NCBI GenBank assembly: GCA_026395685.1
Contig: JAPLYG010000012.1
Location: forward strand, 7,039 to 71,038
Source of the DNA: Candidatus Parcubacteria bacterium
Lineage (GTDB): Bacteria > Patescibacteriota > Patescibacteriia > CAIXNZ01
DNA: 64,000 nt
Direction of reading: 5' to 3'
Made by a program: the position numbers and the translations under genes. The notes under the pieces are model-generated. The model did no database searches and had not been told where the DNA came from. It worked only from the letters and a program-made list of their open reading frames with translations. Shown here in pieces: positions 3,918-30,730 of the stretch. Every line of letters starts with the position of its first letter. The stretch's first letter is position 1.

Positions 3918-4334
3918 ATGACCATTCATCGCTGTAAAATTTGCGGTTATATCTACAAAGACGGTGAAGCGCCGGCAGAGTGTCCGATTTGCCAGAATCA
4001 GAATTGCTTTGAAGAGATTCCTGAAGCTAAGGTCGATTATGAATTTTTTAAAGATTGCTGGACTCGACAGGTTAAATGGATGAATGCCACCAAATATCAG
4101 AATGAGATTATGTTAAATCCGGATGAAAATGTTTTAAAACAGCTGGCTGAAACCGAGAAAAAATTCCTGCTTGAAGGCAAACAGGCTTATTGTCCCTGCC
4201 GTATTTTAACAGGCAATGAACTGGCTGATCGCAAGATTATTTGTCCGTGTTATTTTTACATGGGGGAAGTGGAACTGCAGGGGAGATGCCATTGCAGTCT
4301 GTATGTGACACCGAAATGGGTGGAAAAGAAGTAA
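3918..4334 (+). CDS. Rubredoxin-like Zn/Fe ribbon fused to a ferredoxin:thioredoxin-reductase catalytic-subunit-like domain
   Basis: N-terminal CKICGY...CPICQ (rubredoxin-like). C-terminal CPC-x14-CPC-x12-CHC matches the FTR catalytic-chain Cys/His signature. Confidence 0.6.
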   Translation: MTIHRCKICGYIYKDGEAPAECPICQNQNCFEEIPEAKVDYEFFKDCWTRQVKWMNATKYQNEIMLNPDENVLKQLAETEKKFLLEGKQAYCPCRILTGNELADRKIICPCYFYMGEVELQGRCHCSLYVTPKWVEKK

Positions 4335-4341
4335 ACCGAGC

Positions 4342-4612
4342 AGCTGTCATTCAGAGCGAAGCCTCGAAAGGGCGCAGCGTGGAATCCTGTTTTCCGCATT
4401 CCCATTTCCGCTCAATGCTTGGCCTTGTTGCTCGGGATCCAATCCCCTCCTATCATTCTGGATTTGTAGAATACGGAATGTCGCTAGGGAATTGGATTCC
4501 TAAGCCCTATTCGCAATCTGAAAGGATTCTTCGCTACACTAACGGATTCCCTGTTTAAAGGGGAATATAAATTTCTAGCTTCGCTCTGAATGACGGCTGG
4601 CGTTTTCGCCCA
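4342..4612. repeat. MITE/REP-like element (family A, copy 1). About 258 bp bounded by 22-bp terminal inverted repeats, plus a GCGTTTTCGCCC tail.
   Basis: Left end CAGCTGTCATTCAGAGCGAAGC (4342-4363). Right end GCTTCGCTCTGAATGACGGCTG (4578-4599). The same cores recur at 11108-11292 and 14076-14170. The overlapping ORF 4241..4558 is probably not a gene. Confidence 0.6.
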
Positions 4613-7930: not shown

Positions 7931-8815
7931 ATGAATAATCCTAAACAACTTTACATTCTCCCATTTGACCACCGCGCTTCCTTTTTTCGCGATCTTTTTG
8001 GCTGGAAAGAGCCTTTGACTAAAGCGCAATATAACAAAGTTAAAGAAGCCAAACAGATTATCTGGTATGCGTTTGTGCGATCTTGGGCCAAGTGCAAGAA
8101 AACTTGCAAAGGAAATATGGGGATTTTGGTTGATGAAGAGTTTGGAACTGATATCCTGAAAGCAGCTAAGAAGCTGGGTGCGGTCAGGATTTTGACCACT
8201 GAAAAAAGCGGACAGAAAGTTTTTGATTTTGAATTCGGCTCCAAGTTTGGCCAGCATCTTTTGAAATTCAAGCCTGAATATTCCAAAGTATTAGTCCGTT
8301 ATAATCCCGTGAATAAGAAGGATAATTTAGAGCAGCTTAAACGTCTGAAAAAGATGAGTGATTTTTGTCTTAAGAATAAGATCGGATTCCTGTTTGAACT
8401 TTTAGTGCCGGCCACCGATGAGCAGCTGAAAAAATATGGTAAGAATTATGACTTGAAAGCTCGTCCGTTTTTGTCAGTTCAGGCCATGAAGGAAATAAAT
8501 AAATTCGGCATTAAGGTTGATATTTGGAAGCTGGAAGCCATGCCCCGTAACTATTGGCCCAAGATCATTAAAGTCGCCGGGAAAGCCCAAATTGTGGTTC
8601 TGGGAAGGGCTGGCACTAAGGCTCTAGTCAGTCAATGGCTGAAATGTGCAGCTCAATTCAAGGAAATAATTGGTTTTGCAGTTGGACGCACTATCTTTTT
8701 TCAGCCTTTGGAACAATGGCGGGATGGGAAGATTAGTAAGGATAAGGCGATTGGTTTGATTGCGAAAAACTTTGAGTATTTTGTTTATTTATGGGAAAAG
8801 GCTAAGAAAAATTAG
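7931..8815 (+). CDS. Class I aldolase of the LacD / DUF2090 (IolC C-terminal-like) TIM-barrel family
   Basis: YILPFDHRASFF resembles the LacD AFDQRG motif and GIKVDIWKLE resembles LacD VDVLKVEVP. Sits in a pentose-phosphate context next to a PfkB kinase. Confidence 0.45.
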   Translation: MNNPKQLYILPFDHRASFFRDLFGWKEPLTKAQYNKVKEAKQIIWYAFVRSWAKCKKTCKGNMGILVDEEFGTDILKAAKKLGAVRILTTEKSGQKVFDFEFGSKFGQHLLKFKPEYSKVLVRYNPVNKKDNLEQLKRLKKMSDFCLKNKIGFLFELLVPATDEQLKKYGKNYDLKARPFLSVQAMKEINKFGIKVDIWKLEAMPRNYWPKIIKVAGKAQIVVLGRAGTKALVSQWLKCAAQFKEIIGFAVGRTIFFQPLEQWRDGKISKDKAIGLIAKNFEYFVYLWEKAKKN

Positions 8816-8820
8816 CTTCT

Positions 8821-8910
8821 GGGCGAAAACGGCTGTGTTTTGAGGACGGTAGAGACGCGGTATACCGCGTCTCTACCAGAGAACGTCTTCGACGACAGCC
8901 GTTTTCGCCC
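8821..8910. repeat. Nested palindromic element (family A-related)
   Basis: Outer perfect 16-bp inverted repeat GGGCGAAAACGGCTGT / ACAGCCGTTTTCGCCC. It encloses the perfect palindrome GTAGAGACGCGGTATACCGCGTCTCTAC. Confidence 0.65.
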
Positions 8911-10268: not shown

Positions 10269-10438
10269 TGTTACTAATATACTAATTAGCTACTAATCTA
10301 CTAATTTATAATTTGTAGATTTGTAGTTTATCTGTAGATATGAAACATATTTAATGAAGTTGATTTTTGGATGGGTTTTTGCTAAAATTAAGGTATTAAA
10401 TGGATACTAATCTACTAATTCGCTACGAATCTAATTAT

Positions 10439-11104
10439 ATGAAATTATATATAGTGGGTACTCCGATAGGAAATTTAGAGGATATTAGTTTAAGAGCCTT
10501 GAGAATACTCAAAGAGGTTGATTTTGTGTTATGCGAGGATACGAGGGTGACGCGGGTGCTTCTGGACAAGTATGAAATCAAGACACCGACTATTTCCTAT
10601 TTTCAGCATTCCGGGTTAACTAAGGTTAACCAGATTATTGACTTACTGAAGAACGGAAAAAATTTAGCTTTGGTTTCCGATGCTGGTACTCCTGGGATTT
10701 CTGATCCGGGCAATAAATTGATTGAATTAGTTTTAAAGGAATTGCCTGAAGTCAGGATTGAACCGATTCCCGGCGCCTGCGCAGCTATTTGCGCTTTATC
10801 CATTTCCGGTCTTCCGACTGATAAATTTATTTTTTACGGATTTTTACCTCATAAGAAAGGCAAGGAAACGATTTTGAAAGAAATTATCAGCAATAAGTTC
10901 ACTTCGGTTTTTTACGAATCAACTCATCGCATTTTAAAGACTTTAGGGAAACTGAAAGATTTGGGTCTTATGGACAAGCAGGTTGTGGTTTGCCGGGAAG
11001 TGACTAAGAAGTTTGAAACAACGTATCGCGGGAAAATTGAGGAAGTGTTGGAGAATTTGGAAAAGGATGTGACCAAGGGTGAATTTGTCGTTATTATAAG
11101 TTAA
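10439..11104 (+). CDS. rsmI: 16S rRNA (cytidine1402-2'-O)-methyltransferase RsmI
   Basis: MKLYIVGTPIGNLEDISLRALRILKEVDFVLCEDTR. The ORF track extends to 10400, but those extra codons lie in an AT-rich repeat. Confidence 0.88.
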   Translation: MKLYIVGTPIGNLEDISLRALRILKEVDFVLCEDTRVTRVLLDKYEIKTPTISYFQHSGLTKVNQIIDLLKNGKNLALVSDAGTPGISDPGNKLIELVLKELPEVRIEPIPGACAAICALSISGLPTDKFIFYGFLPHKKGKETILKEIISNKFTSVFYESTHRILKTLGKLKDLGLMDKQVVVCREVTKKFETTYRGKIEEVLENLEKDVTKGEFVVIIS

Positions 11105-11107
11105 GCT

Positions 11108-11292
11108 CGGGTATCACCGAATTCATTCGGTGATGCACCCATACAACGCCGAATGAATTCGGCGTTACCCCGGAAACGATGGGCGAAAACGCCCTTTGTC
11201 CTATTATTGTCATTCAGAGCGAAGCGAAGAATCTCTATGTTCAATTAGATCCCTCGTTACCTCGGGATGACAAAGGGCGTTTTCGTCCGTGA
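11108..11292. repeat. Family A nested palindromic element (copy 2)
   Basis: Palindromes CACCGAATTCATTCGGTG and ACGCCGAATGAATTCGGCGT. Outer inverted repeat GGGCGAAAACGCCCTTTGTC / GACAAAGGGCGTTTTCG flanks the core GTCATTCAGAGCGAAGCGAAGAATCTC...GGATGAC. Confidence 0.65.
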
Positions 11293-11323
11293 CAAATAAG
11301 CTATTAAACCAATTAACCATAAT

Positions 11324-12499: not shown

Positions 12500-14074
12500 A
12501 TGCCCAAAGCTAAAACAGTAAAAACTAAGACAACTAAAACAAAAGAGTCAAAGACTTTTTATATTACCACAACTTTGCCGTATGTGAATGCTGATCCCCA
12601 TATCGGTTTTGCGGCGGAAATTGTTCGGGCTGATATTATTGCCCGTTATCAACGCACTCTGGGCAAGGATGTCTTTTTTAATACCGGTACGGATGAACAT
12701 GGTCAGAAAATTTATAATAAGGCTCTGGAAAACGGTAAGGATCCGCAGGCTTATGTTGATGAGTATGCCGCTAAATTTGAGCTTTTGGATGATACTTTAG
12801 ATTTGAGCTTTAATAGCTTTACTAGAACAACAAATCCCGAGCATGTGAATGCAGCTCAGGAATTTTGGAAACTGTGTGATAAAAAAGGTGATATCTATAA
12901 GAAAAATTATAAAATTAAATATTGCGTGGGGTGTGAATTGGAAAAAAGTGATTCAGAGCTGGTCGACGGCTGTTGTCCGCTTCATCCCAAACAAAAACTG
13001 GAAATTATTGACGAAGAAAATTATTTTTTTGCCTGGTCAAAATATCAGCAAAAACTTTTGAACCTGTATGAGGAAAATTCGGATTTTATCGTGCCCCAGC
13101 ACCGTTTGAATGAAATCAAGAATTTTGTGGCATCCGGACTTCAGGATTTTTCAATTTCCCGTTTAAAAAGTAAAATGCCCTGGGGAGTGCCGGTTCCGGG
13201 TGATGACGATCATGTGATGTATGTGTGGTTTGATGCTCTTGTTAATTATATTTCCTGCCTGGGCTGGCCTAAAGATAAAAAACAATTTAAAAAATTCTGG
13301 CCGGGAGTTCAGGTGGCGGGTAAGGATAATTTGCGACAACAAACCGCAATGTGGCAAGCAATGCTTATGTCCGCGGGTTTGCCAAATTCCAAACAGGTTT
13401 TAATTTTCGGTTTTATTAATTCCAACGGCCAGAAAATGAGTAAAAGTCTAGGAAATGTGATTAACCCGTTAGAGCTAGTGCAAAAATACGGCACAGACGC
13501 TGTCCGCTATTTTCTGGTTGCCGGCTTAACCGCGTATGAAGATAGCGATTTTACTTTTGAAAGATTTGAAGATAAATATAATTCAGCCCTGGCTAATGAA
13601 TTCGGCAACCTAGTTTCCCGCGTCCTGGCTATGACAGAAAAATATTATGGCGGCCAGGTGCCAAAATATAATGTCGACTCAGATAAATTTTTTGCCTTTG
13701 ATCTTAAGACCGACTGGGAAAAATACGATTTTTTCATGAAGAATTATAAGCTTGAAGATGCCCTCAATGTTGCCTGGGAAGATATCAGGCGCTGTAACAT
13801 ATATATTGATAGAAATAAACCCTGGGAGCTGGCTGCCAATAATGATGATGAAACTTTGCCGGATGTAATTTTTAACCTGCTGGAAACAATCCGCCAGATT
13901 AGTTGGATGATTTTGCCGTTTATGCCGCAAACAAGCGACAAGATTTTGGGGCAATTAGGATTTGATCAGGAGAAGGAAAAGGAAAAGGGGATTGAGGCTT
14001 TGCGCAAATGGGGCGGCATGAAATTGGGGCAGAAAGTTAATAAGGGTGAGAATTTATTTCCGAGGCTGGGTTAA
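12500..14074 (+). CDS. metG: Methionyl-tRNA synthetase (minimal form)
   Basis: PYVNADPHIGFA (HIGH) and KMSKSLGN (KMSKS). Zn knuckle CVGCE...CCPLH. Confidence 0.92.
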   Translation: MPKAKTVKTKTTKTKESKTFYITTTLPYVNADPHIGFAAEIVRADIIARYQRTLGKDVFFNTGTDEHGQKIYNKALENGKDPQAYVDEYAAKFELLDDTLDLSFNSFTRTTNPEHVNAAQEFWKLCDKKGDIYKKNYKIKYCVGCELEKSDSELVDGCCPLHPKQKLEIIDEENYFFAWSKYQQKLLNLYEENSDFIVPQHRLNEIKNFVASGLQDFSISRLKSKMPWGVPVPGDDDHVMYVWFDALVNYISCLGWPKDKKQFKKFWPGVQVAGKDNLRQQTAMWQAMLMSAGLPNSKQVLIFGFINSNGQKMSKSLGNVINPLELVQKYGTDAVRYFLVAGLTAYEDSDFTFERFEDKYNSALANEFGNLVSRVLAMTEKYYGGQVPKYNVDSDKFFAFDLKTDWEKYDFFMKNYKLEDALNVAWEDIRRCNIYIDRNKPWELAANNDDETLPDVIFNLLETIRQISWMILPFMPQTSDKILGQLGFDQEKEKEKGIEALRKWGGMKLGQKVNKGENLFPRLG

Positions 14075-14075
14075 T

Positions 14076-14170
14076 AACGCCCTTTGTCATTCTGAGCGAA
14101 GCGAAGAATCTACGACTTCGTAGATCCTTCACTCCGTTCAGGATGACAGTTTGAGGACAAAGGGCGTTTT
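14076..14170. repeat. Family A palindromic element (copy 3), directly after the metG stop
   Basis: CGCCCTTTGTCATTCTGAGCGAAGCGAAGAATCTACGACTTCGTAGATCC...CAGGATGAC...GACAAAGGGCG. Likely doubles as a terminator. Confidence 0.65.
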
Positions 14171-14183
14171 AGTTTAATCTTTT

Positions 14184-14873
14184 ATGCAAGTTAAGCAACT
14201 GAAATTCAATAATCATACTTTTAAGGTAAATCTCCGCGATCAGGCTGATGCCAGCGTCTTTGCGGAGATTTTTGAATTGCGAGAATATCGCAGTGCGGAA
14301 AGCATTATAAAATCAGCGCACTTTCCCATTATTGACGCGGGAGCACACGCCGGTTTTTTTGTTTTGTATTGCCGGGCGTTAAATGCTAAAATTAAGATAT
14401 ATGCACTTGAACCAGAGACGGAAAATGCTCAATTTTTAGCTAAACATTTGAAGTCTAATCGTATTCACGATGTTAAGATTTTTCAGCAGGCATTGGCTGG
14501 CAAAAGTGTGATCCGTGAATTTTTTGTTTCCGAGGATACGCACAATCATTCCTTGATTAAACCCGTGAAATATAAAGAAAAAATTTCAGTCAACTCTGAA
14601 AGCTTGTCAGAATTCTTAACTAATCATAAATTGGATCGAGTTAGCCTCCTGAAATTGGATATTGAAGGCGCAGAATACGAGGTTTTGGAAAATTTGGCTC
14701 AGAAAGATTGGCCAAAATTGGGAAATATATTATTAGAATACCATGATTTACCAGAAAAGAATCATCAGCAATTGGCTGAACTAATCCGTAGAAATGGCTT
14801 TAGTTTGGAGATTTTTCCGTCTCATTATGATAATAAACTCGGCTATATGCTGGCGAGGAATAAAATCGTTTAG
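14184..14873 (+). CDS. FkbM-family SAM-dependent methyltransferase
   Basis: DAGAHAGFF and LKLDIEGAEYEVLE motifs. Confidence 0.75.
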   Translation: MQVKQLKFNNHTFKVNLRDQADASVFAEIFELREYRSAESIIKSAHFPIIDAGAHAGFFVLYCRALNAKIKIYALEPETENAQFLAKHLKSNRIHDVKIFQQALAGKSVIREFFVSEDTHNHSLIKPVKYKEKISVNSESLSEFLTNHKLDRVSLLKLDIEGAEYEVLENLAQKDWPKLGNILLEYHDLPEKNHQQLAELIRRNGFSLEIFPSHYDNKLGYMLARNKIV

Positions 14874-14986
14874 CGTTTATCGGTATCGATAATCGTTACG
14901 TAAAATGTTTAACGTTAAACGTAACGGAAAACGCCTGCCTGCCGAAGCTTTAGCAGCGGCGAGAAACCGGATATCGAATAACTATT
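14874..14986. repeat. Family B repeat (copy 1)
   Basis: ATCGGTATCGATAATCGTTACG...TTTAACGTAACGGAAAACGCCTGCC...CGAATAACTATT. Near-identical copy at 28425-28513. Confidence 0.6.
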
Positions 14987-15550: not shown

Positions 15551-15672
15551 CTGAACCACTGAAATTAATTCACAGAAAACACTGAAATATAATAAACCAC
15601 TGAAATTTTCTCACTAAAAACACAGAAATATATTGAACCACTGAAACTAATTCACAGAAAACACAGAATTAT
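15551..15672. repeat. Tandem array of three ~40-bp units (family C words CCACTGAAA / CACAGAAAAC) upstream of the GxxExxY gene
   Basis: Units GAACCACTGAAATTAATTCACAGAAAACAC, AACCACTGAAATTTTCTCACTAAAAACACAG and GAACCACTGAAACTAATTCACAGAAAACACAG. Inverted copies of the same words lie at 16061-16112. Confidence 0.65.
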
Positions 15673-16116: not shown

Positions 16117-16953
16117 ATGTTGATAGATAGCCACGCCCACCTCACCTTCAAAGACTTTGATCCCGACCTGGAGGAAGTTATTAGACGTTCTCTTGATTGT
16201 GGTACCCAAATTATCAATGCCAGTGCGGATTATGAGACCAGCGTTCAAGCTGTTGACTTGGCTCAAAATCGCGATGGCATGTGGGCTTTTATCGGCTGCC
16301 ATCCTGATGAATTGGCTAATGAAGAATTCAATATTGATAAATATAGGAAGCTGGCGTTATCAAGTAAAAAGGTGGTTGGAATAGGGGAAGTGGGCTTGGA
16401 TTATTATCGCCTTGATAACAACGCAGCTGAAATTAAATCAGAACAAAAGGAAATTTTTTTACAATTTATTAATTTGGCGCAGGAACTTGATTTGCCTCTG
16501 GTCTTACATGGACGTGGAAAGAAAGATGATCCCTATGGCGTATATGATGAGATGCTGGAAATTCTGAAGGCCGAAGTCTCCGCCTACGCTAAAGCTTCGG
16601 CGGACAGGCGAAGTATGAAGTCTGAAGTTAAAGGAGTTATTCATTGCTATGGCGGAAATTTGGAACAGGTAAAAAAGTTTATTGATTTGGGCTTTTACAT
16701 CGGTATTACCGGAATTGTGACATTTAAAAATGCCAAAGAATTGCAGGCAATAGTTAAGGAGATTTCTTTAGATAAAATGTTAATTGAAACTGACGCGCCG
16801 TTTTTAGCGCCAGATCCATATCGAGGGCAAAGGAATGAACCGAGTTATGTAAAATATGTTTGTCAGAAAATAGCGGAGCTGAAAGAATTGAGTTTTGACG
16901 AAGTGGCGAAGGCGACGCATGAGAATACTTGCAGACTATTTAATTTGAAATAA
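16117..16953 (+). CDS. tatD: TatD-family metal-dependent hydrolase/DNase
   Basis: MLIDSHAHL start; VGIGEVGLDY; IETDAPFL. Confidence 0.85.
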   Translation: MLIDSHAHLTFKDFDPDLEEVIRRSLDCGTQIINASADYETSVQAVDLAQNRDGMWAFIGCHPDELANEEFNIDKYRKLALSSKKVVGIGEVGLDYYRLDNNAAEIKSEQKEIFLQFINLAQELDLPLVLHGRGKKDDPYGVYDEMLEILKAEVSAYAKASADRRSMKSEVKGVIHCYGGNLEQVKKFIDLGFYIGITGIVTFKNAKELQAIVKEISLDKMLIETDAPFLAPDPYRGQRNEPSYVKYVCQKIAELKELSFDEVAKATHENTCRLFNLK

Positions 16954-20267: not shown

Positions 20268-20329
20268 TTTTTGACGATAAGGGGATGCAAATTTCGTCCC
20301 CTTGGGCTAGGAATTATTGAAGTTTAAAA

Positions 20330-20455
20330 TTCAAAGTTTAAAGTGCAAAGTTACAGTTAATAATTTAAAATTTAGGAAGATTATTTAAAATAAAATATTC
20401 CAAAATTTTTTACTTTACTATGTAATTTTGCATTTTGCATTTTTAATTTTTAATT
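20330..20455. repeat. Family D AT-rich palindromic element
   Basis: AAAGTGCAAAGTTACAGTTAATAATTTAAAATTTAGGAAGATT, with a degraded return arm GTAATTTTGCAT. Shares a 27-bp identical core with 29541-29660. Confidence 0.55.
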
Positions 20456-20463
20456 ATTTTTAT

Positions 20464-20961
20464 ATGGAGTCACTTATTTCAACATTTCATTTAGACGTAA
20501 AATTAATTATTGCCCAGCTATTCAATTTTGCCGTGGTTGCTTTGGTTTTATGGTTTTTTGCTTTAAAACCTCTGCTGAAAGTAATGAGTGAAAGAACAAA
20601 AACCATTGAAAAAAGCTTGGCTGACGCCAAGAAAATTGAGGACAGGCTGGTTAAAACCGAAGCTGAAAAAAAACAGATTATTGATGCTACCAAGAAAGAA
20701 GCAGCTAATATACTTGATGAAACCAATAAAAAAGCCGAAGCCAATAAAAAAGAAATGGTGGAAAAGGCAAAAGATGAAATAGAAAAATTAATCGCTAAGG
20801 GTAAATATCAGATTTCTTCGGATAAGGAAAAAATGCTGGTTGAGGTTAAGGCTGAATTGGCGGATTTGGTAGTTGACGCGACTAAAAAGGTGCTTGGTGA
20901 GTCATTGACAAAGGAAGTCGACAGAAAAGTGGTAGAAGAAGCAGTTAAAAAGATACGTTAA
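20464..20961 (+). CDS. atpF: F0F1 ATP synthase subunit b
   Basis: N-terminal TM, then a long charged Lys/Glu-rich helix. Operon position. Confidence 0.75.
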   Translation: MESLISTFHLDVKLIIAQLFNFAVVALVLWFFALKPLLKVMSERTKTIEKSLADAKKIEDRLVKTEAEKKQIIDATKKEAANILDETNKKAEANKKEMVEKAKDEIEKLIAKGKYQISSDKEKMLVEVKAELADLVVDATKKVLGESLTKEVDRKVVEEAVKKIR

Positions 20962-23281: not shown

Positions 23282-24184
23282 ATGCCCAATACCCGCGACA
23301 TCAGAAGACGCATCAAGTCCATCTCAAATACGAAGAAGATTACCAAGGCCATGGAAATGGTGGCTTCTTCTAAAATGAGAAGGGCAGTAAATGGAGTGCT
23401 GGCTTCCAGGCCATACTCTGATTTGGCGTGGCAATTGATTCTAAATGTCGCTGGTAAGGCTTCTATTAAGCATCACCGTTTACTAGCTAAAAGAAAAGAA
23501 ATTAAATCCATTGGTATCGTACTGATTACCTCAAATCGCGGTTTGTGTGGGTCATTTAACCAGCAGGTTATGAAATCAGCGGTTGAAATCATTAAAAACG
23601 AAAAAGCTCAGCATTTTGATTTGAAAGTTGATATTGTTTCAGTCGGTAAAAAAGGTGCGCGCTCTATGTTTAGGCAGGGATATAAAGTCGTGGCTGAATT
23701 TGAAAAGCCAGATGTGATCAATAGCATTTTAGACGTCAAACCAATGGCCAATATGATTATGTCAGACTTTTTACATAAAAAATACGATAAAGTTTATTTA
23801 ATTTACACTGACTATATTTCTGCCTTAAAGCAGATTCCCAGAGTGAAGCAGATTTTACCGATTGAACCTACTCCTGATTTATTCCTGGGCACGGTCATTG
23901 AACAAAAAGAACAAGCAGTTAAACAATTTGAATATAAATTTGAACCGCCGGCTAAGGAAATATTAGGGGAGTTGCTACCGCGTTTGCTTTCCGTCCAGGT
24001 CTATCAAGCTTATCTGGAAAGTAATGCCTCAGAGCATTCTGCCCGCATGCTAGCCATGAGAAACGCTTCAGACGCTGCCGGTGACATGATTAATGAATTA
24101 ACCTTAATTTTTAACCAGGCGCGTCAGTCTGCGATCACCAAGGAAATAGCGGAAATTGCCGGAGGCAAGGCCGCACTCGAATAA
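23282..24184 (+). CDS. atpG: F0F1 ATP synthase subunit gamma
   Basis: IRRRIKSISNTKKITKAMEMVASSKMRRA start and conserved C-terminus ...ITKEIAEIAGGKAALE. Confidence 0.9.
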   Translation: MPNTRDIRRRIKSISNTKKITKAMEMVASSKMRRAVNGVLASRPYSDLAWQLILNVAGKASIKHHRLLAKRKEIKSIGIVLITSNRGLCGSFNQQVMKSAVEIIKNEKAQHFDLKVDIVSVGKKGARSMFRQGYKVVAEFEKPDVINSILDVKPMANMIMSDFLHKKYDKVYLIYTDYISALKQIPRVKQILPIEPTPDLFLGTVIEQKEQAVKQFEYKFEPPAKEILGELLPRLLSVQVYQAYLESNASEHSARMLAMRNASDAAGDMINELTLIFNQARQSAITKEIAEIAGGKAALE

Positions 24185-24264
24185 ACTCGTCGGCCTTAAC
24201 ACTTTAGTGTTAAGGCGATGCACTCAAACACTAAAGTGTTTGAGCCGTAAATAAGGGTCAGGCA

Positions 24265-24318
24265 GCCATTACCGAGGAAATAGCTGAAATTGCCGGAGGT
24301 AAGGCCGCACTGGAATAA
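24265..24318 (+). repeat. Diverged duplicate of the last ~17 codons of atpG including the stop. It is separated from the original by a 76-bp palindrome-containing insert.
   Basis: GCCATTACCGAGGAAATAGCTGAAATTGCCGGAGGTAAGGCCGCACTGGAATAA versus GCGATCACCAAGGAAATAGCGGAAATTGCCGGAGGCAAGGCCGCACTCGAATAA at 24131-24184. Confidence 0.7.
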
Positions 24319-24366
24319 TTTAAAATTCAAAATGCAAAGTGCAATGTTACAAAGCAAAATGAATAA

Positions 24367-25779
<1,413 letters not shown>

Positions 25780-28373: not shown

Positions 28374-28424
28374 GGCGCTTTTATTTTACGCAGCGGGGAT
28401 TATAAGGTACAATAATTGAAGGTG

Positions 28425-28513
28425 TTCATCGTTAATCGGTATCGACAATCGTTACGATTATCGATTATCGTTTAACGTAACGGAAAACGTCTGCCGAAAA
28501 ACGAATAACTATT
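28425..28513. repeat. Family B repeat (copy 2), immediately upstream of rlmN
   Basis: ATCGGTATCGACAATCGTTACG...TTTAACGTAACGGAAAACGTCTGCC...CGAATAACTATT. Confidence 0.6.
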
Positions 28514-29521: not shown

Positions 29522-29540
29522 TATACTTGGTATAGTTAAA

Positions 29541-29660
29541 AATTTATAGTGCAAAGTTTAAAGTTGCAGTTAATAATTTAAAATTTAGGAAGATTTTATT
29601 TAATATTCTTCCTAAACTTTAAATTTTACACAGTAACTTTGCATTTTTAATTTTGAACTT
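29541..29660. repeat. Family D palindromic element (complete hairpin)
   Basis: AGTGCAAAGTTTAAAGTTGCAGTTAATAATTTAAAATTTAGGAAGATTTT / AATATTCTTCCTAAACTTTAAATTTTACACAGTAACTTTGCAT. Confidence 0.6.
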
Positions 29661-29674
29661 TAAACTAGTTCTCT

Positions 29675-30730
29675 ATGCCATATAAAGAAAAATTTAAACC
29701 GTTGAAATTTCCTCAAGATGAACAAAAACACGACCACATCATTGAATGGTGGTATTTTAACGGTAATCTAAAAACAAAAGACGGTCAGTCATTTTCCTAC
29801 ATGAACACTTTGTTTGCCACCAAGCCCAAACTGGTAAAAATTCCTTTTTTACAAAATATACCGGTCAAAACTTTATTTTTTTCTCATTATTTACTCAGTG
29901 ATAATAATAATCATAAATTCTGGGAAAAGGTTAATCCTTTGTGCCTTTTAGATCATAATAGTTTTTCCAAGCCATTACTTTGGGCTTCATATGACAATTC
30001 GTGTCTGATTGAGGAGGAAAAACTATTTAATTTTCATATTGTTAATGATTTTGTCGATTTGAATTTAAAAACCGCGAAAAAACCGTTATTGATAGATGGT
30101 AAAGGATTTATTGATTTGGGAGTAAAGACTACTTATTATTATTCGCTTACGCATTTGCATACTAGCGGATTAATTAAAATTAAAAATAAATGGCTTTCAG
30201 TTACGGGCCTAAGCTGGATGGATCACCAATGGGCTCAGACTCCACTGACCAAAGACGATAAATGGACCTGGTTTTCTTTGCAGTTAAATAATGGCTGGGA
30301 TATTATGGCTGTAGTTTATGGCGATGAAAAAAAGACCAGTCATGCCTCTATGATGGATAAAAATAATAGAGCTAGGACGACAAGCAATTTATTTTTTAAG
30401 GAGTTATCCCCGCAATATTCAAGTAAAGAAACAGGCGCTGTATATAAGCTGGGCTACGAGATATTTTTGCCTGATTGGAATCTGAAATTAACCGTAAAGC
30501 CCTATAATAAGGCGCAAGAAATGATTTTTGGCAATATAAATTATTGGGAAGGCTGTATGGATGTTCAGGGAGAGTTGAATAATAAAAAAATCAGCGGTCA
30601 GGGCTTTTTAGAATTAGTCGGAAGTCCTATGAAGAAAAGTTTGGCCAAGATTTATCTTAATAAGTTTCAAAAAAGCGGATTTAAAGATCTCAAAGCCGAA
30701 GTTTTGGAAAAGATAAAAATTTATCGTTAA
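29675..30730 (+). CDS. AttH/CrtC-like lipocalin-domain protein
   Basis: HDHIIEWWYFNGNL near the N-terminus, typical of the AttH/hydroxyneurosporene-synthase-like family. Confidence 0.4.
   Translation: MPYKEKFKPLKFPQDEQKHDHIIEWWYFNGNLKTKDGQSFSYMNTLFATKPKLVKIPFLQNIPVKTLFFSHYLLSDNNNHKFWEKVNPLCLLDHNSFSKPLLWASYDNSCLIEEEKLFNFHIVNDFVDLNLKTAKKPLLIDGKGFIDLGVKTTYYYSLTHLHTSGLIKIKNKWLSVTGLSWMDHQWAQTPLTKDDKWTWFSLQLNNGWDIMAVVYGDEKKTSHASMMDKNNRARTTSNLFFKELSPQYSSKETGAVYKLGYEIFLPDWNLKLTVKPYNKAQEMIFGNINYWEGCMDVQGELNNKKISGQGFLELVGSPMKKSLAKIYLNKFQKSGFKDLKAEVLEKIKIYR

Follow-up and report, generated by a model that had tools for sequence, protein, structure and literature searches.

Inverted doublets of probable SsnA-type recognition sites behind genes of a Candidatus Parcubacteria genome segment

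The stretch of Candidatus Parcubacteria DNA analysed here (64,000 nt in full, hereafter the window) carries four intergenic hairpin elements, E1 (4342-4612), E2 (8821-8910), E3 (11108-11292) and E4 (14076-14170; all window positions). The module GTCATTC(W)GAGCGAAGCGAAGAATC that recurs among them is probably an SRM, the recognition site of an SsnA-type nuclease, and the doublets that it forms in the window are probably gene-less, non-autonomous relatives of nuclease-bearing cassettes, as judged from sequence and predicted folding. SRMs are known from the Ssn/NTS/SRM system (Chenal et al., Nat Commun 2025, PMC11893778) as imperfect palindromes of 20-50 nt that form hairpins, have a direction and are recognised by SsnA-type nucleases, which are ssDNA endonucleases of about 100 aa with GIY-YIG as their single domain, in the family of the Neisseria NTS/dRS3 repeat (NTS, CGTCATTCCCGCGMAVGCGGGAATCYRG). 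The window units belong to a G·A-loop subclass that the published SRM pattern misses. Their assignment would explain a very common but rarely annotated sequence and link it with enzymes whose family was not characterised until 2025.

Composition of the four elements

All four elements directly follow stop codons, as the earlier note had observed; the genes that end there are, in order, an FTR-like gene, a DUF2090 gene, a TP_methylase (rsmI-like) gene and the gene for MetG. The next start codons lie 13-45 nt 3' of the elements and the gene arrays are co-directional. The shared modules reported there were confirmed at their places and in numbers far above chance. With up to one mismatch, GGGCGAAAACGSC occurs five times in the window (4599-, 8821+, 8898-, 11181+ and 11276-), and with up to two mismatches it gives eight matches against 1.75 expected, a number reached in 0/100 shuffles; GTCATTCWGAGCGAAGC is present in four exact copies (4346+, 4578-, 11209+ and 14086+) against 0.23 expected. 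However, the single "Family A" in which the modules had been merged consists of three unrelated ones, namely the GTCAT stem-loop unit, the outer palindrome (GGGCGAAAACGSC) and the E2 core. E2 has no GTCAT unit, E4 has half of the outer module and E1 has one outer copy. A covariance-model scan of the whole window placed exactly four intact GTCAT units (11209-11233+, 11248-11271-, 14086-14110+ and 14123-14147-); together with two expanded ones they all fall inside 10 kb, and the remaining 50 kb of the window yielded no module copies. The features of E1 and E2 are as follows.

4341-4362, + strand: left terminal inverted repeat of E1, CAGCTGTCATTCAGAGCGAAGC, complementary to 4578-4599 at 21/22 positions
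4346-4386, + strand: putative left SRM-like unit of E1 with expanded apical part, GTC-ATTC...GAAT-C, not an intact 25-mer
4363-4577, no strand: interior of E1, a unique patchwork of short GGAATCC/GGATTCC-type palindromes
4525-4594, - strand: right SRM-like unit of E1, its apical loop split by about 42 nt, GTCATTCAGAGCGAAGC ... AGCGAAGAATC
4599-4611, - strand: outer module of E1, GGGCGAAAACGCC, a single copy without left partner
8821-8836, + strand: outer arm of E2, GGGCGAAAACGGCTGT, pairing with 8895-8910
8848-8877, no strand: core of E2, GGTAGAGACGCGGTATACCGCGTCTCTACC, a palindrome with GTAG ends, 30 nt self-complementary
8895-8910, - strand: outer arm of E2, reverse complement of 8821-8836

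The 22-bp terminal inverted repeats ascribed to E1 are indeed there, and both of its GTCAT units are split or expanded, neither being intact; the left one has an exact head, GTCATTCAGAGCGAAGC, and closes with GGAATC, and the covariance model gives it no full-unit score. When compared with the 2.3 Mb of loci collected, the interior of E1 matched nothing, and the ORF that overlaps it (4241-4558) had no Pfam match. A reading of this interior as a decayed ssnA gene was rejected, there being no GIY-YIG signal with all filters off. E2 consists of the outer module without a GTCAT unit, built around a core that belongs to a separate, widespread palindrome family, found in 29 viral contigs, and is not an SRM. 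The features of E3 and E4 include all of the intact units.

11110-11164, no strand: 5' part of E3, two related hairpins, CACCGAATTCATTCGGTG and CGCCGAATGAATTCGGCG, kept at the orthologous site of the relative L160
11181-11200, + strand: outer left arm of E3, GGGCGAAAACGCCCTTTGTC
11209-11233, + strand: intact SRM-like unit of E3, GTCATTCAGAGCGAAGCGAAGAATC (covariance model 40.6 bits, E = 4e-6)
11248-11271, - strand: intact SRM-like unit of E3, variant GTCATCCCGAGGTAACGAGGGATC (covariance model 26.3 bits, E = 0.003)
11269-11288, - strand: outer right arm of E3, on the + strand GACAAAGGGCGTTTTCGTCC
14076-14088, + strand: outer left arm of E4, AACGCCCTTTGTC, beginning 2 nt past the metG stop and overlapping the GTC head of the unit
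14086-14110, + strand: intact SRM-like unit of E4, canonical, GTCATTCTGAGCGAAGCGAAGAATC (covariance model 43.6 bits, E = 1e-6)
14111-14122, no strand: spacer of the E4 doublet, TACGACTTCGTA, itself a small palindrome
14123-14147, - strand: intact SRM-like unit of E4, variant GTCATCCTGAACGGAGTGAAGGATC (covariance model 41.2 bits)
14155-14170, - strand: outer right arm of E4, on the + strand GGACAAAGGGCGTTTT, ending 13 nt before the start codon of an FkbM-type methyltransferase gene

The window units thus listed form tail-to-tail inverted doublets with their heads outward and no nuclease gene; the E3 and E4 doublets are embedded in the outer palindrome, and the units of E1 form one larger composite. 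Two compensatory pairs and one loop base are all that distinguishes the two arms of the E4 doublet, and the GTCATCCTGAACGGAGTGAAGGATC variant type was seen again in five collected loci (L019, L040, L078, L108 and L136). Outer inverted repeats of 13-15 nt (AACGCCCTTTGTC / GACAAAGGGCGTT) are common to E3 and E4, although E4 lacks all of the outer module but its inner half (AACGCCCTTTGTC / GACAAAGGGCGTTTT). This outer palindrome is lineage-specific, since the composite of outer module and unit gave only chance matches in coding DNA when sought in viral contigs; matches to CRCCGAATKMATTCGGYG in these contigs likewise look like chance. The two hairpins in the 5' part of E3 are not SRMs and are ancestral to the locus.

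The long nested inverted repeats of the earlier description fold, as RNA, into strong hairpins (E1, -109; E2, -66; E3, -88; E4, -50 kcal/mol), and DNA folding of the composites gave z = -6.4 for E3 and -7.1 for E4. Single units are unremarkable in nearest-neighbour DNA energy (-0.3 to -2.6 kcal/mol, z about 0), a point against the SRM reading. Rfam searches returned nothing relevant, either over the whole window at gathering thresholds or over 3.8-17 kb at E <= 5, nor did any tRNA turn up. A hammerhead-like interpretation of CUGA...GAA was dismissed on manual inspection, as N7-G8-A9 is missing from the core and Rfam has no match.

The GTCAT unit, its spread and its relation to known repeats

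The module GTCATTC(W)GAGCGAAGCGAAGAATC is a separate 25-nt stem-loop with support from covariation, always preceded by GTC at its 5' flank and followed by C at its 3' flank. Over 50 distinct 25-nt variants, 94% of cells at paired positions are complementary and in six of the seven pairs both partners are seen to change; values this high did not arise in any of 500 shuffles, and register-shifted controls pair at 20-48%. From its GTC head, the unit proceeds through a 5-bp stem, ATTCT/AGAAT, that is free to covary, a tandem G·A/A·G internal loop and a 2-bp stem closing on a GNA loop (GCGAAGC), and ends with the 3' C. Head and trailing C are kept in 4/4 intact window units and in almost every partner arm that was identified by its head alone. 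Where orientation within doublets was scored, 69 of 165 cases were tail-to-tail and 11 head-to-head.

Far from being a set of unique local sequences, the units belong to a dispersed family, as had been proposed: at least 120 genome loci contain the 25-mer in exact form, coming by their record titles from about a dozen phyla, among them Acidobacteriota, Nitrospirota, Chloroflexota, Bacteroidota, Bacillota, Cyanobacteria, CPR, Planctomycetes, Verrucomicrobia, Nitrospinota and Proteobacteria, with Helicobacter also represented, and the same 25-mer is present in 39 IMG/VR viral contigs. The G·A-loop subclass is large, spanning CPR bacteria, Acidobacteria, Cyanobacteria, Firmicutes and phage contigs. 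A literature search with the literal unit sequence retrieved no paper. Translation of the units yields the familiar spurious peptides "VILSEAKNL" and "RFFASLRMT".

The correspondence with NTS/SRM sites is close. The window units are likewise directional, with the GTC head directly before an ATTC...GAAT palindrome and a C directly after it; their apical part is variable and dispensable; and units of this type are intergenic, clustered, distributed across phyla and found flanking single-domain GIY-YIG genes of ~100 aa in a motif-gene-motif layout. The flanking GTC and C are the positions that count in the published system, in which the C just past the palindrome is critical for binding by SsnA, the 3 nt ahead of the palindrome are critical for cutting, and the NTS loop is dispensable and tolerates extension (PMC11893778). 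In contrast to the continuous NTS stem (ATTCCCGCG/CGCGGGAAT), that of the window units is broken by the tandem G·A/A·G loop and capped by a GCGAAGC-type mini-hairpin, and unlike published SRM sites, G·A units mostly occur as tight tail-to-tail doublets, here in a CPR genome segment devoid of the gene. The two types nevertheless meet in one doublet of the locus L076, which pairs a canonical NTS-type unit with a G·A-type unit. The published SRM pattern, HGTCWYN(0-2)YYVSBRHN(0-5)WNVSBRGN(0-2)RNCYNB, matched nowhere in the window; it matches NTS, whereas seven of seven G·A-type test units fail it. That pattern was an operational search tool derived from 29 genomes rather than a definition of the family, and an SRM was found nearby in 71% of ssnA homologues (PMC11893778). 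Because the pattern misses the G·A subclass, the published counts of Ssn-motif association (71% and 42%) are probably underestimates. As a well-defined and highly conserved site, the subclass is also a candidate for a new ssDNA-cutting specificity.

Other repeat families share some of these traits. In Neisseria, the dRS3 repeats and the intergenic mosaic elements (NIMEs) have the ATTCCC-N8-GGGAAT palindrome core, which is the NTS core, and they bracket short intergenic segments and build mosaics, but dRS3 is genus-specific as described and without the G·A loop, and the literature links it to phage integration and recombination hot spots. REP/BIME/REPIN repeats with their RAYT transposases also consist of short and imperfect palindromes with a head conserved at the 5' side, often in inverted doublets, recognised as ssDNA hairpins and vastly outnumbering the single associated nuclease gene that they flank; they differ in their head (GTAG versus GTCA), in their enzyme (HUH Y1 transposase versus GIY-YIG) and in being species-specific rather than spread across phyla. 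With IS200/IS605 elements and their palindrome-associated miniature derivatives the units would have in common ssDNA hairpin ends, cleavage beside the hairpin, the lack of target duplication and the existence of gene-less derivatives, whereas the catalytic family (HUH), the processing of both ends on the same strand and the much larger size of the elements set IS200/IS605 apart. The small dispersed repeats (SDR) of heterocystous cyanobacteria are very small hairpins nested in each other and in other repeats, as seen here, and, unlike the present units, are restricted to their lineage; no nuclease gene is known to be associated with them.

Adjoining GIY-YIG genes and insertion history

Sensitive searches of the 64-kb window found no ssnA gene. 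In the collected loci, however, small single-domain GIY-YIG genes adjoin units or doublets in all eight members of the subfamily that were seen (L034, L044, L120, L161, L245, L246, L256 and L257). Six of the eight have units on both sides; L120 stops at a contig end, and in L034 the downstream unit lies in a doublet. A lone unit on the 5' side of the gene (L034, L044, L161 and L256) gives the layout unit-> gene-> <-unit, the downstream inverted unit of L034 being part of a doublet, and ssnA is located between or beside complete doublets in L246 and L257. The unit-flanked ORFs match Pfam PF01541 (E = 6e-17 and 3e-12) and no other domain; their products are 105-123 aa long in the examined loci and mostly 93-125 aa among the 120 homologues listed, against about 94-120 aa for the Ssn family. 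Proteins flanked by G·A units are 45-63% identical to that of L245, which has near-canonical NTS flanks, compared with 26-38% to the UPF0213 structure 1ZG2. By these sequence criteria, the genes are predicted to encode the nuclease of the published Ssn family (candidate cd10448). No more than about 2% of the canonical units collected adjoin a GIY-YIG gene, and a first tblastn for such genes gave just three loci; the link is convincing because of the orthologous site in L161 and the homologue look-ups.

Of the sampled relatives that carry an ssnA-like gene at the rsmI site, L161 is the closest, its MetG being 77% identical to that of the window. Behind its rsmI-like gene come a unit, a GIY-YIG ORF, a second unit and then GGGCGTTTTCGTCC, whereas in the window the rsmI-like gene is followed by a unit, 14 nt, a unit and the identical GGGCGTTTTCGTCC. 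A GIY-YIG gene also follows rsmI in a third relative, while L160 has a short hairpin, GGGCGA-ggca-TTTTCGCC, in place of the SRM-bearing insert of the window, and L265 has a Y1_Tnp gene directly after rsmI; the site differs in every relative. This comparison of rsmI ends was made by reading the sequences, MAFFT global alignment being uninformative. E4 is missing after metG in four relatives (MetG identity 77-90%), and L265, with a spacer of 21 nt, has no E2. Since both are missing in close relatives, E2 and E4 appear to be recent insertions, in keeping with the mobile-element activity that the earlier note had proposed. Such presence/absence patterns between relatives at 77-90% protein identity, and the comparisons of filled and empty sites in a small CPR genome, lend circumstantial support to the mobility both of motif-ssnA-motif units and of their gene-less doublets, an idea raised by Chenal et al. 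(PMC11893778).

Mechanism and alternative readings

In the mechanism that we envisage, a single-stranded unit would fold, be bound by Ssn and be cut a few nt upstream of its GTC, as has been shown for other members; a heads-out doublet would be cut once at either outer boundary, the two cuts falling on opposite strands. Doublets would be miniature, non-autonomous relatives of unit-ssnA-unit cassettes and would spread into intergenic hairpins. Their long hairpins, when transcribed, may also act as RNA structures, a secondary and unproven role. A bolder version, which we regard as possible but rather doubtful, is that SsnA moves SRM doublets in trans as miniature mobile elements, cutting both outer boundaries on opposite strands, with preferential insertion into the loops of existing intergenic hairpins and with one extremely conserved G·A-loop site circulating between phyla and phages. 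If so, this would be a transposition-like system based on a GIY-YIG ssDNA nuclease, parallel to REPIN-RAYT.

GIY-YIG domains are typical of homing endonucleases, and ssnA might accordingly be a homing-type selfish gene that invades pre-existing host hairpins, the units being retained by the host for some other purpose and the doublets being empty target sites and not derivatives of a cassette. The gene-bearing and gene-less versions of the same site in relatives would suit this reading, as would the frequent position of ssnA between or beside complete doublets (as in L246 and L257). We consider it unlikely, as the units have no known independent function that could keep 25 nt unchanged through about a dozen phyla, gene-less doublets themselves show presence/absence among close relatives (E4), and the published enzyme cuts ssDNA outside the motif and not a dsDNA homing site. 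This enzyme binds its hairpins as ssDNA only, dsDNA, RNA and the opposite strand not being substrates (PMC11893778), and this inability to bind the RNA form also weighs against the elements being primarily RNA-level structures, that is, intrinsic and possibly bidirectional terminators or 3' mRNA stabilisers in which the repeated sequence is incidental. To the credit of that view, which we rate as somewhat less probable still, all four elements abut stop codons, the composite hairpins are very stable, the outer arms flank a GC-rich stem with an A-run on one side and a T-run on the other (GGGCGAAAACG...CGTTTTCGCCC), and TTTTAGTTTAATCTTTT comes after E4. The GGGCG stem end is followed by T4, and the T-rich tail of E4 is longer. 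But a terminator has no need of unpaired bases that are conserved (GTC head, tandem G·A, trailing C), or of a 25-mer that stays identical between phyla and in phages; start codons so close downstream, in co-directional arrays, are a poor fit; the same genes abut without a hairpin in close relatives; and Rfam has no match.

Two transposase-based accounts remain, both of which we regard as very improbable. The elements had been called REP/MITE-like, and the REP analogy is apt in kind, the hairpins being tied to a small nuclease gene and often arranged as inverted doublets, but they are neither a genome-specific REP family nor classical MITEs. For a REP/REPIN system mobilised by a RAYT (HUH Y1 transposase) one can cite the inverted doublets of imperfect palindromes, the GTAG at the ends of the E2 core, which resembles REP heads, and the Y1_Tnp gene directly after rsmI in L265. 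The GTCAT units, however, begin with GTCA and have no GT(A/G)G head, REP families are species-specific whereas this motif crosses phyla, and the Y1_Tnp gene of L265 is flanked by different hairpins, TAACACNCTAAAGNGTGTTA. Moreover, tblastn with the L265 Y1 transposase and an IS200 TnpA sequence found no Y1 transposase in the window, and no recurrent transposase, Y1 or other, emerged among about 3,500 clustered ORFs within 2 kb of 170 units, the clustering recovering only related phage genes. This same lack of transposase genes, in the window and recurrently beside units, tells against classical MITEs with TIRs at their ends that a DDE-type insertion sequence gave rise to and moves, for which the 22-nt terminal inverted repeats of E1, the outer inverted repeats common to E3 and E4 and the insertion polymorphism among relatives could be adduced, and so does the lack of any visible target-site duplication: no direct repeat abuts E1, E2 or E3, and E4 has only an imperfect pair, GGTTAAT / GTTTAAT. 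The "TIRs" of E1 are SRM units around a unique interior, and where the earlier note had suggested a check for a cognate transposase, the gene that travels with the units in gene-bearing relatives encodes, by its predicted product, a GIY-YIG nuclease of the published Ssn family and not a known transposase.

Composite elements and the 25-nt hairpin unit

The earlier note described two modules repeated at four intergenic places of the window, 4342-4612 (E1), 8821-8910 (E2), 11108-11292 (E3) and 14076-14170 (E4), and reading of these places together with a scan of the window confirmed that both modules are present. The outer module, a palindrome arm (GGGCGAAAACGSC), was found in five copies at ≤1 mismatch and in eight matches at ≤2 mismatches (1.75 expected; eight was reached in 0 of 100 shuffles), and GTCATTCWGAGCGAAGC in four exact copies against 0.23 expected. 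Both modules are real, but they are not common to all four elements: E2 consists of the outer module only, E4 has only its inner half, and in E1 each of the two GTCAT units is either split or expanded. A covariance model recovered exactly four intact units in the 64 kb, all within E3 and E4. RNA folding, proposed as a check, gave very stable folds for the E1-E4 composites, as did folding as DNA. The neighbouring genes are as follows.

3918-4334, + strand, FTR-like gene
between the FTR-like and DUF2090 genes, + strand, DUF2127 gene
7931-8815, + strand, DUF2090 gene
after the DUF2090 gene, + strand, PfkB gene
10400-11104, + strand, TP_methylase/rsmI-like gene
12500-14074, + strand, MetG gene
14184-14873, + strand, FkbM-type methyltransferase gene

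MetG of the window is 88-90% identical to metagenome proteins and ~60% identical to those of Uhrbacteria, Magasanikbacteria, Torokbacteria and Falkowbacteria, which assigns the window to Patescibacteria/CPR. The G+C content is ~37%, with positive GC skew across the 3.5-17.5 kb profiled.

The 25-nt unit (GTCAT module) has the layout GTC-ATTCT-GA-GC(GAA)GC-GA-AGAAT-C. The second arm of E4, read on its own strand, is GTCATCCTGAACGGAGTGAAGGATC, and the five differences between the E4 arms comprise two compensatory pairs (T6-A22 to C-G; G11-C17 to A-T) and one loop base. Units collected from 2.3 Mb of loci with a pattern fixing only GTCA, both GA steps and the final TC yielded 50 distinct 25-nt variants, in which 94% of cells are paired and six of the seven stem pairs show both-sided changes, values that none of the shuffled controls attains; in register-shifted controls pairing drops to 20-48%. 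The stems include ATTCT/AGAAT, ATCCT/AGGAT, ACCCT/AGGGT, ATGCT/AGCAT, ATTCC/GGAAT and ATTGC/GCAAT, and the apical part ranges from GCGAAGC up to hairpins of 15-40 nt. This variation argues that the GTCAT module is a hairpin in its own right, a support that is comparative rather than thermodynamic, because the nearest-neighbour energies of single units are unremarkable. The DNA mini-hairpin d(GCGAAGC) is famously stable, and sheared G·A pairs in tandem add stability; both contributions may be overlooked by standard energy parameters.

A probable G·A-loop subclass of the Ssn system

The exact 25-mer was found in 39 IMG/VR contigs of very diverse composition and in at least 120 loci of the species-representative genome set. 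By record titles, the matches listed include isolates of Pedobacter, Mucilaginibacter, Calothrix PCC 7716 and Helicobacter marmotae, as well as MAGs of Acidobacteriota, Nitrospirota, Chloroflexota, Bacteroidota, Bacillota, CPR groups, Planctomycetes, Verrucomicrobia, Nitrospinota and Proteobacteria. Given this spread, the element is not a genome-specific REP or MITE; the earlier interpretation is partly supported.

NTS (CGTCATTCCCGCGMAVGCGGGAATCYRG), a longer, directional motif, includes the Neisseria dRS3 repeat; across many phyla, homologues of SsnA, a single-domain GIY-YIG protein of 94 aa (CDD cd10448), are flanked by NTS-like "Ssn-related motifs" (SRMs) (Chenal et al. 2025, PMC11893778). 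SsnA binds the hairpin as ssDNA only, not as dsDNA, RNA or the reverse strand, and its cleavage site lies a few nucleotides 5' of the motif; binding depends critically on the C that follows the palindrome and cutting on the three bases that precede it, whereas the loop is dispensable and extendable (PMC11893778). Transformation of N. meningitidis with DNA that carries NTS is restricted by the system, and the NTS-ssnA-NTS arrangement has been likened to an insertion sequence and to the REP-RAYT relationship (PMC11893778). The window units have in common with NTS/SRM the GTCATTC...GAATC arms, the GTC head (5' end), the trailing C and the gene association.

The last is seen directly in a relative (L161) whose MetG is 77% identical to that of the window. 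There, downstream of the rsmI-like gene come a unit (GTCATGGTGAGCATAGTCGAACCATG), an ORF of 105 aa with a GIY-YIG domain (PF01541, E = 6e-17), an inverted unit and GGGCGTTTTCGTCC; the window has, at the equivalent place, a unit, 14 nt, an inverted unit and the identical GGGCGTTTTCGTCC, that is, gene-bearing and gene-less states of one orthologous site. In a third relative, a GIY-YIG gene 82% identical has the same synteny as in L161. A profile built from these proteins found five members in all collected loci, four of which abut units, and in further look-ups the GIY-YIG genes of L245, L246, L256 and L257 were all bracketed by units or doublets (two units in inverted orientation). Wherever the 5' side of the gene abuts a single unit only, the order reads unit->, gene->, <-unit. 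The family comprises at least 8,000 clusters at E ≤ 1e-5, and the contigs bearing it are mostly short, as expected if assemblies break at repeats. No transposase recurs among the neighbours of units.

Proteins adjoining units with the tandem G·A internal loop share 45-63% identity with a protein that has near-canonical NTS on its flanks and 26-38% with the UPF0213 protein 1ZG2, the nearest solved structure, and in one locus (L076) a canonical NTS-type and a G·A-type unit are partners in a single doublet. NTS fits the published degenerate SRM pattern, but neither the window units nor the units flanking the eight ssnA genes do so; the G·A-loop type is therefore a subclass that the published search missed. 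The window element is probably a new member, within this subclass, of the Ssn/SRM system described recently; in this CPR genome it takes the form of doublets that lack the gene and lie inside lineage-specific palindromes.

A downstream inverted partner, with tails (3' ends) facing and heads outward, accompanies 42% of canonical units, and an upstream one only 7%. ssDNA-specific, strand-specific binding and cleavage just upstream have been reported for other family members (PMC11893778). The units of the window would be substrates of an Ssn-type enzyme with its gene elsewhere in the genome; in heads-out doublets, cleavage would fall on both outer edges, and the doublets may represent non-autonomous mobile derivatives.

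Arrays of bare heads (GTCATYCTGAG) spaced by ~20 nt lie 5' of complete units in L257 (~1270-1400), L040, L060, L153 and L018, which points to partial duplications that occurred repeatedly, or to nested insertions, at the head in these genomes.

Presence and absence in relatives

E4 is absent 3' of metG in four relatives (L160, L161, L265 and L266; MetG identity 77-90%), and E2 is absent in L265, where the DUF2090-PfkB gap is 21 nt. The syntenic stretches of the two closest relatives (L265, 22 kb; L266, 7.5 kb) contain no significant unit, the best match being in L265 at E = 0.1. The spacer downstream of rsmI differs in every relative: L161 and the P0050 contig carry ssnA cassettes, L266 has unrelated hairpins, and L265 (6097-6729, orthologous to window ~11105-11320) has, directly after rsmI, a 210-aa Y1_Tnp (PF01797) gene with its own flanking hairpins (TAACACNCTAAAGNGTGTTA) and then a type ISP restriction-modification gene. 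In this CPR lineage, mobile DNAs of different kinds have a hot spot between rsmI and metG. From these comparisons E2 and E4 appear to be recent insertions; no target duplication is evident at the elements, with junctions not definable to the nucleotide at this level of MetG identity (77-90%).

The elements could also act as terminators or mRNA stabilisers. Such an action is possible as a side-effect but unlikely to be their main function, given that start codons lie only 13-45 nt downstream and that the relatives manage without the hairpins.

The last metG codons (14062-14075, ctgggttaataa) resemble the outer module, and just after E4 (14166-14183) stands CGTTTTAGTTTAA, resembling the ancestral metG end (CGTTTAGTTTAA in L161). 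Insertion of E4 may have replaced the C-terminal codons and stop of metG.

Outer palindromes and other repeats

The outer palindrome GGGCGAAAACGSC / GSCGTTTTCGCCC is confined to the lineage of the window. Its 11-mer core GGGCGAAAACG has four copies in the window (the full module, five at ≤1 mismatch) and occurs elsewhere as single copies, probably by chance; no genuine composite of outer module and unit was found in viral contigs. The arms AACGCCCTTTGTC / GACAAAGGGCGTT are common to E3 and E4, with the inner doublet flipped relative to an 11-nt asymmetry. Of E3, L160 has the first two hairpins, followed only by a short hairpin, GGGCGA-ggca-TTTTCGCC, where the window has AAACGCCCTTTGTC...doublet...GACAAAGGGCG, which suggests that the SRM-bearing piece of E3 was inserted into the loop of a small hairpin that predates it.

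Related hairpins at 11115-11132 (CACCGAATTCATTCGGTG) and 11147-11164 (CGCCGAATGAATTCGGCG) are distinguished by one compensatory change, from A-T to G-C; both are retained at the orthologous site of L160 (88-141; MetG identity 77%) and are therefore older than the SRM insertion.

The E2 core GGTAGAGACGCGGTATACCGCGTCTCTACC (8848-8877) is a perfect palindrome with GTAG/CTAC ends. Its family, GTAGAGACGCG-N6-CGCGTCTCTAC with the middle mostly GATTAATC, occurs in 29 IMG/VR contigs. Like the SRM units, to which it is unrelated, this second hairpin family crosses lineages; its head is REP-like.

Several other repeats were observed in the window. A 72-nt direct repeat (14868-14939 and 28424-28495; 82% identical), rich in CGTTA/ATCG motifs, adjoins an inverted 30-mer, CGCCTGCCTGCCGAAGCTTTAGCAGCGGCG (14932-14961 and 16581-16610); this is another GC-rich intergenic palindrome family. 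AT-rich intergenic modules (AGTTTAAAATTCAAAGTTTAAAGTGCAAAGTT...) recur in direct and inverted orientation over 9 kb (20321-20466, 24317-24389 and 29533-29677), and a 41-nt unit, TGAACCACTGAAAT...CACTGAAATAT, is present in three tandem copies at 15552-15672. Finally, a 62-nt direct repeat (24123-24184 and 24257-24318; 87% identical) with TAA at the end of each copy looks like duplicated gene ends, 134 nt apart.
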